A stretch of 64,000 nucleotides of DNA, taken from contig OX597828.1 in the NCBI GenBank assembly GCA_951406725.2, positions 72,354,001-72,418,000 of the forward strand, read 5' to 3'. A model generated the notes under the pieces. The model did no database searches and was not told where the DNA came from. It saw only the letters and a list, made by a program, of their open reading frames with translations. A program made the translations under genes and the position numbers. Numbering within the stretch: the first letter of the stretch is position 1; every line of letters starts with the position of its first letter. The stretch is from Octopus vulgaris (Eukaryota). Positions 37,867 through 38,347 of this stretch are shown piece after piece.

Positions 37867-38347
37867 ACATTATTTACATTATTTACATTTGACGGATATT
37901 TGTCCTCATCTTGATTTTTGCTAATACAACGTTTTGGCAGATATACCCTTAAGCCGTCATCAAGTGTCTTGGGCATATGGCGTAATGGTTAAGAGCGCGG
38001 GCTACTAACCCCAAGATTCCGAGTCCAATTCTAGGCAGTGACCTGAATAATAATAATAATAATAATAATAATAATAATAATAATAATAATAATAATAATA
38101 ATAATAATAATAATAATAATAATAATAATGATAATAATAATAATAATAATAATAATAATAATAATAACAACATCGAAAAAAATCTTAGGAATGAGAACCC
38201 AGGTACGAAATTTCCCCAAGACACCTGAAGAAGGCTGGAGGGTATATCAGCTGAAACGTTGTGTTAACAACAAACATGATGAGGACAAATATCTGTCAAA
38301 TGTAAATAATGTAAATAATGTACATATTTCCTCATCTCTTAAATATA
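37867..38347 (+). mobile_element. tRNA-headed, hammerhead-carrying element with an inverted 5' copy of its tail
   Basis: tRNA-like head 37971-38043, (AAT)n, HHR 38220-38265 and tail; 37867-37973 is the inverted tail. Confidence 0.8.
38220..38265 (+). ncRNA. Minimal type I hammerhead in the tRNA-headed element
   Basis: GACAC-CTGAAGA-A-GGCTGgagggtatatCAGCT-GAAA-CG-TT-GTGTT. Confidence 0.75.

Follow-up and report, generated by a model that had tools for sequence, protein, structure and literature searches.

A tRNA-headed hammerhead repeat of Octopus vulgaris as the probable pLTR of a decayed Poseidon-type Penelope-like element

Introduction

Which enzyme spreads a short repeat that begins like a tRNA and carries a hammerhead ribozyme near its 3' end? 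The question is raised by a 64,000-nt stretch of the Octopus vulgaris genome (contig OX597828.1, positions 72,354,001–72,418,000; hereafter the window), in which two dispersed copies of such a repeat were noticed. The first-pass annotation read the repeat as a self-cleaving SINE whose tRNA head had been fused to the borrowed tail of a Penelope-like element (PLE) and which was mobilised by a PLE RT/GIY-YIG enzyme. SINEs are defined by LINE dependence in the SINEBase description (PMC3531059). As judged from sequence comparison, the whole unit, consisting of a tRNA-like head, (AAT)n, a minimal hammerhead and a tail, is the pseudo-LTR (pLTR) of a decayed Poseidon-type PLE of the same genome.

Results

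Structure of the two window copies

Both copies lie where they had been annotated and share one order of parts, and neither ends in poly(A) (Table 1). Copy 1 had been given an end at 38347. It extends to near 38353 and has a likely target duplication; the flanking sequences AACTGGAATTC and AGCTGGAATGC match at 9 of 11 positions, including an exact 7-bp core, CTGGAAT. In front of the head, copy 1 carries an inverted copy of its own hammerhead and tail, joined to the head through a shared GGG as originally described. This inverted arm is identical to the plus arm at 93 of 107 bases, and its hammerhead core is broken and decayed (TTGATGA; AAAA in place of GAAA). Copy 2 begins at head position +13 with most of the A box missing, and its microsatellite reads (AAT)n(AAG)n.

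Table 1. Coordinates of the repeat copies and their parts in the window
Feature	Positions	Strand	Sequence or remark
Copy 1, left copy of likely 11-bp target-site duplication	37856..37866	+	AACTGGAATTC
Copy 1, inverted arm (piece of the pLTR truncated at its 5' side, covering tail positions 47-153, to short 3' end)	37867..37973	-	
Copy 1, tRNA-derived head, full tRNA length	37971..38047	+	
Copy 1, A box	37978-37988	+	TGGCGTAATGG, intact
Copy 1, B box	about 38021-38031	+	GAGTCCAATT, mutated
Copy 1, (AAT)n microsatellite	38046..38167	+	length varies among copies
Copy 1, first ~54 codons of the PLE ORF ('second box', hammerhead and tail), to long 3' end	38191..38353	+	open frame from ATG 38191
Copy 1, minimal type I hammerhead	38220-38265	+	predicted cut after 38260
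Copy 1, right copy of likely 11-bp target-site duplication	38354..38364	+	AGCTGGAATGC
Copy 2, single arm, long 3' end	52432..52832	-	
Copy 2, B box	52785-52794	-	GAGTTCGATT, present in copy 2 only
Copy 2, hammerhead	52523-52568	-	helix III palindrome broken, ACAT for ACGT

The hammerhead of copy 1, annotated correctly together with its predicted cut, is built from stem I (GACAC/GTGTT), the core CTGAAGA, a bulged A, stem II (GGCTG/CAGCT), GAAA, a palindromic ACGT and a GUU triplet. All features listed for the minimal PLE hammerhead in the consulted part of Cervera and De la Pena 2014 (PMC4209133) are present: the core CUGANGA/GAAA/UH, a base between positions 9 and 10.1, the G10.1-C11.1 pair, a palindromic 15.2-16.2 and a helix I of 4-5 bp. 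Helix II measures 5-6 bp, versus the 7-8 bp stated for the Schistosoma hammerhead. Neither the head nor the ribozyme was recognised by ARAGORN and Rfam.

The box claims had merged the two copies. An A box and a B box do exist in the head, with A box TGGCGTAATGG in copy 1 only and B box GAGTTCGATT in copy 2 only. The 'second B box' placed in the spacer was rejected. It reads GGTTCGAA, not a full B box, in copy 2 only, copy 1 has GGTACGAA, and the site falls within the opening codons of the PLE ORF. Because spacer, hammerhead and tail are the first codons of that ORF, as described below, the supposed box is coding sequence.

The window also holds, on the minus strand at 42651-43070, a GIY-YIG domain fragment of another, Neptune-like PLE (tblastn E 1.7e-8). 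A near-perfect, MITE-like palindrome of ~115 bp occupies 5997-6113, where Rfam microRNA matches stay below threshold.

Abundance and head-tail linkage in the genome

The exact 42-nt hammerhead pattern matches the genome 1,055 times and its reversed control 0 times, far above chance. Forty evenly spaced 10-kb stretches contained four loci and no solo head, which extrapolates to a rough ~28,000 loci in the 2.8-Gb genome (hand-calculated Poisson range ~8,000-72,000). Head and tail are linked, as the fused structure annotated at first implied. Tail sequence lies nearby in 28 of 30 head-anchored loci (25 of 28 with the tail on the same strand within 1 kb, after removal of two duplicates), and part of the head is kept in 60 of 90 hammerhead-anchored loci. 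The two tail-less loci continue into unrelated sequence after the microsatellite. Same-strand neighbours are rare, and the loci are single or inverted without head-to-tail tandem units. All copies seen are decayed, with ~92% identity to the column majority. Across 79 arms that had not been picked by this motif, the commonest letters spell an intact hammerhead core throughout, but the core decays like the neighbouring sequence.

The (AAT)n run is often split by unrelated sequence (L008, L012, L023, L024, L028, L029, L106 and L109), apparently because other repeats with a preference for AAT runs inserted there later. One insertion is present eight times in nearly identical form and with the same flanks (L238-L245, G000:C31), which reflects either segmental duplication or the way that contig was assembled.

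The protein-coding partner

A tblastn comparison of the repeat loci located an RT fragment (in L006) that runs via a GIY-YIG-like end directly into the head. A search with this fragment returned 30 loci, and the head stands right behind the ORF in 28 of them (21 of 23 after eight duplicates of one locus were merged), with the stop codon 29 nt before the head. A decayed PLE that shares the repeat's tail is thereby found. At the other end, a search with the 5' part of the ORF yielded 30 N-terminal loci; in 10, the tail lies directly upstream and continues into the ORF, and the head is also present in two of these 10. The 3' end of the element is thus repeated in front of its ORF, the arrangement of a pLTR.

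The partner encodes an RT together with a GIY-YIG-like C-terminal end in a single ORF. The RT domain was detected by Pfam in a natural copy (L249; RVT_1, E 5.5e-10). The GIY-YIG-like end was read by eye in L006, L223 and L225; Pfam gave no GIY-YIG match on the L223 fragment. The column majority comprises 837 codons in two frames, which a single slip at an A run separates. Longer natural copies align with the N-terminus of a homologue, P0007 (scores 163-193 in five of seven), and the window's own 52-aa peptide scores 30 against it, not above shuffles (mean 24.5). Upstream of the hammerhead there is an ATG in frame, and an ATG within the core is out of frame. A 47-nt GT..AG intron by which the latter ATG would come into frame was considered but gained no support; the unspliced frame aligns with the P0007 N-terminus, and the intron joint is absent among the 15 joints listed of 101.

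Homologues of the RT fragment number 992 and are PLE-like, including an Anolis protein at 40% identity. A CX2-5CxxC finger between RT and EN, which Neptune and Nematis possess according to the relevant part of PMC8557442, is absent from the partner translations and present in a 781-aa family of the same genome. In a midpoint-drawn tree of 19 rows, the partner lies apart from the genome's Neptune-like families; the tree contains no named Poseidon reference, so that the name Poseidon-type, used here for the partner, is inferred. Neither the Neptune-like family with its intact 781-aa frame nor any other GIY-YIG family detected with Pfam was accepted as the partner, their tail not being shared and their hammerhead being different (50 loci).

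The Neptune-like family, exemplified by L191 (G000:C16:20835500-20841000), carries a U3-A8 variant hammerhead near its 3' end and has (AT)n behind it. Its 781-aa frame is intact at 16 of 148 GIY-YIG matches, so the family was likely active recently. Two further GIY-YIG types (L202, L208 and L070), unlike both the Neptune-like and the Poseidon-type families, point to more PLE clades in the genome.

These results change the origin proposed for the unit. The head was not joined to a borrowed PLE tail but belongs to the pLTR of the protein-coding PLE itself, and the tail is PLE ORF sequence instead of an ordinary LINE 3' end. The PLE identity of the repeat and its mobilisation by a PLE are near certain.

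The insertion signature

Fold-back pairs with heads inward were found at 86 of 153 sampled loci, a sample chosen by similarity or exact pattern that favours well-kept copies, and at three of four randomly sampled loci. In 74 of the 86, one arm has a long 3' end and the other a 3' end 30-40 nt shorter, with arm ends near tail positions 185-188 and 145-157. Loose read ends occur at 1284/1285 and 1318/1319 of L256. Target duplications, mostly 12-13 bp (lengths that may include a few element bases), surround 64 of 84 pairs, compared with a mean of 4.75 and a maximum of 8 after shuffling. Because one duplication encloses both arms, each pair represents one insertion. The two arms share 35 derived alleles (shuffled mean 20, maximum 38), a slight excess that is not decisive for their origin from the same template.

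A 30-40 nt tail at one end only, combined with an inverted 5'-truncated copy, agrees with the tails and inverted copies described for PLEs in the consulted parts of PMC8557442 and PMC8969392; the former describes the pattern of duplicated inverted arms as absent from non-LTR TPRT. Mobilisation of the repeat by a PLE is well supported, and the enzyme class named in the first-pass annotation stands, with both its partner and its insertion signature in hand.

A conventional LINE-driven SINE that happens to bear a hammerhead would account for a tRNA head with A and B boxes, for target duplications and for a length of ~270 nt without the microsatellite. It is at odds with a body composed entirely of PLE ORF sequence, with the lack of a poly(A) or repeat tail, and with 3' ends at two constant positions and arms that are duplicated in inverted orientation. 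This explanation is very improbable and already largely refuted. Measured against SINEBase, the repeat has a Pol III-RNA-derived head, is non-coding and stays under 700 bp; in place of a partner LINE and a simple-repeat 3' tail, it has PLE ORF sequence at its 3' end.

The tRNA-derived head

The derivation of the head from a tRNA was borne out. It has tRNA length, and a family copy (L002) is colinear with a genomic tRNA-Arg(TCG) at an alignment score of 62 (shuffled maximum 45). Arg(TCG) is the best match among only 30 sampled tRNA loci of the genome, which leaves the isotype uncertain. The commonest letters per column restore intact A and B boxes, whose conservation does not visibly exceed that of the columns beside them. 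More divergent family relatives (L211, L212, L215 and L275) have other loop II and spacer sequences; one of them, L212, retains the 3' half of the head, and the capture may therefore predate the main burst. No A and B box pair was seen near PLEs of other species in 41 metagenome loci, a set in which many loci lack the ORF 3' flank and to which the closest relatives (60-72% identity) do not belong.

5' ends and the template RNA

Among 75 arms from 90 hammerhead-anchored loci, 30 begin at +6..+48 and 31 at -8..+5; two begin at -14 (palindromic junctions) and 12 further upstream. The 5' ends are laddered, and the ladder breaks off at -7/-6, which is 14 nt ahead of the A box. Genome-wide exact counts with 22 fixed bases fall from 4,485 (+30..+53) to 2,733 (+1..+24), 758 (-29..-8) and 512 (-59..-38), that is, 1.6-, 3.6- and 1.5-fold per successive 30-nt step. 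The drop is steepest at the tRNA start, where the excess over the neighbouring steps is only ~2.3-fold in counts that depend on local mutation rates. This accumulation at the tRNA-like start suggests Pol III transcripts as the likely templates. A TATAA lies ~25-28 nt before the inferred start. Its distance to the start and that from the start to the A box both suit Pol III.

The sense strand of the column majority contains no four-T run in 2,545 nt, against 2.3-4.5 expected. The deficit is modest (P 0.006 by base shuffle, 0.03 by codon shuffle and 0.10 in a dinucleotide model); Neptune-like ORFs of the same genome have 1.3-4.7 four-T runs per kb, and three of 22 related ORF stretches likewise have none. 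In two runs, RNA reads are spread evenly over the two orientations without a start peak, a picture that copies lying within host transcripts or an unstranded library would produce.

The ends could also have been set by reverse transcription itself, since the palindrome TGCCC-AC-GGGCA at the 5' end of the element or the tRNA-like fold could halt the RT. The short copies would then be ordinary pLTR copies, truncated at the 5' end, of a PLE that Pol II transcribes, with the tRNA-like segment as a passive captured piece, and would owe their SINE-like look to stalling or template switching at the head structure and the -7..+5 palindrome. Short and ORF-linked copies indeed show no diagnostic substitutions between them and similar divergence (4.7% and 5.8%), truncation is steep all along the stretch close to the 3' end, about a quarter of the arms that reach +1 run on into the ORF, and PLEs are usually 5'-truncated (PMC8557442, in part). 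The hard edge at -7/-6, however, lies beyond the hairpin and not at its 3' foot, and of the 12 arms extending past -14, only five have their end in the following 136 nt. The whole unit is moreover free of T-runs, and the head makes up nearly all of the non-coding pLTR sequence. We regard truncation as a rather unlikely source of the short copies.

A SINE lineage of its own, in which a tRNA joined to a PLE pLTR piece spread from separate masters and later joined the ORF end, is improbable. It would fit a summed contig depth of ~2,000,000 over the head versus 2,000-11,000 over the ORF (run X15), a measure that is not copy number. The 5' palindrome could likewise be the relic of a fold-back junction, and small deletions at +1..+13 are commoner in ORF-linked heads (5-7 of 24). 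Against such a lineage, no substitution subfamily is private to the short copies, and no master lineage apart from the autonomous partner emerged in a small sample of 25 ORF-linked and 65 start-at-head arms. Short copies also carry up to 7 nt of PLE 3' UTR upstream of the tRNA start, and the head sequence occurs in the more divergent copy L212 as well.

The reading that we favour, at a probability of roughly 0.6, is that the repeat is a tRNA-containing Poseidon-type pLTR and that most short copies retaining the start derive from Pol III transcripts inserted by the RT/GIY-YIG protein of the same element.

The hammerhead during retrotransposition

The unit had been called self-cleaving, a claim that gained no support from the insertion ends. 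These do not pile up at the cut site (4 of 62 truncated 5' ends at 88-94, with the cut at 92|93), and MFE folding of dimers did not yield the active structure. Since the copies join head and tail across the cut site, their templates had either stayed uncut or been rejoined. The available text of PMC11167929 gives uncleaved RNA as the principal substrate in a related PLE. The octopus hammerhead may be carried uncut, probably as part of a protein-binding RNA, or may cleave only with the help of a protein.

A separate array (L061:3082-4560; G000:C1, near 20,003,000) contains ~359-nt tandem units on both strands, and every unit bears a type I hammerhead motif (CTGACGA...GAAA CCGG TC). It looks like a non-LTR retrozyme or a tandem pLTR array.

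Discussion

The insertion pathway that we propose begins with the recruitment of Pol III by the A and B boxes, with transcription starting ~6-7 nt upstream of the tRNA-derived segment. Transcripts from a 3' pLTR or a solo copy would extend as far as the first T-run of the flanking DNA. The PLE enzyme would cut both DNA strands, and reverse transcription would start internally at two sites 30-40 nt apart, so that neither poly(A) nor a defined RNA end would be needed. The two cDNAs would be joined head-to-head by microhomology, aided by the TGCCC-AC-GGGCA palindrome. A Poseidon protein has been described in vitro to cut both strands and to prime internally at two sites, hammerhead cleavage not being needed (PMC11167929, in part).

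A more far-reaching version is possible, and we advance it tentatively. The PLE would have captured a tRNA gene as its promoter, and Pol III would have made two kinds of RNA. Its transcription from the 5' pLTR would have given a 2.7-kb full-length RNA free of T-runs, and that from solo copies and 3' pLTRs short SINE-like RNAs, which could then spread because the PLE enzyme primes internally. If so, the genome would preserve a SINE-PLE pair, a snapshot of a SINE arising from its own driver.

The partner resembles Penelope/Poseidon PLEs such as PAc of Anolis carolinensis, as far as these are described in the relevant parts of PMC11167929, PMC4209133 and PMC8557442: an ORF with RT and C-terminal GIY-YIG and no linker Zn finger, a pLTR overlapping the ORF start, a minimal hammerhead with a bulged base and palindromic helix III, an optional tail of 30-40 nt and inverted 5' copies. 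Unlike in those descriptions of PAc-type PLEs, a full tRNA-length segment with A and B boxes fills the non-coding part of the octopus pLTR, and 5' ends pile up at its start. The placement of the ATG in frame, ahead of the hammerhead and not inside its core, is a further difference.

In Schistosoma, the high-copy Sm-alpha and Sj-alpha combine a tRNA-derived Pol III promoter with a following type I hammerhead; they are often tandem and show cleavage in vitro, and the available parts of the reports (PMC6765202; PMC2770079) mention no PLE as their partner. The octopus family, by contrast, is dispersed or fold-back, has a minimal PLE ribozyme and runs without a break into a PLE ORF. Non-LTR retrozymes (bioRxiv 10.64898/2026.07.22.740005) and Chlamys MRC1 (PMC8557442) are, in the sections available, likewise short non-coding derivatives of PLE ends for which PLE proteins are proposed as machinery; they form head-to-tail tandems, whereas the octopus family is not tandem. 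The main text of the retrozyme preprint contains no occurrence of tRNA or Pol III. Non-autonomous LTR elements with tRNA heads also exist (PMC10886601, in part).

With tRNA-derived SINEs the family shares its shortness, tRNA head, internal A and B boxes and more than 10^4 copies; it differs in depending on a PLE rather than a LINE and in lacking a simple-repeat tail. The octopus tRNA-derived SINEs OK, OR1 and OR2 were reportedly described by Ohshima and Okada in 1994. OR2 is a CORE SINE (PMC4758252) and so is unlikely to be the same as the octopus PLE family. No tRNA-headed PLE or SINE-PLE pair was found in the literature outside subscription journals, a comparison that did not extend to the sequences of Repbase, Dfam and SINEBase, and a 2026 octopus repeat annotation mentions neither hammerhead nor ribozyme in its text and supplement. 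The family may already be catalogued, as a SINE or under another label, and copies of this kind are easily misfiled as SINEs in repeat libraries.

SINEs are defined as parasites of LINEs, and a tRNA-headed unit with a PLE signature and a matching PLE ORF adds a second enzyme class. The capture of a promoter into a pLTR offers a simple route to a PLE-driven SINE-like unit, and a possible driver for Schistosoma Sm-alpha may thereby be suggested. If the full ORF was transcribed by Pol III, this would be an unusual way of expressing a retroelement protein. The thousands of insertions in the octopus genome, in which two arms with different 3' ends lie within one target duplication, also lend support from genomic data to internal priming at two sites, as demonstrated in vitro with one PLE.
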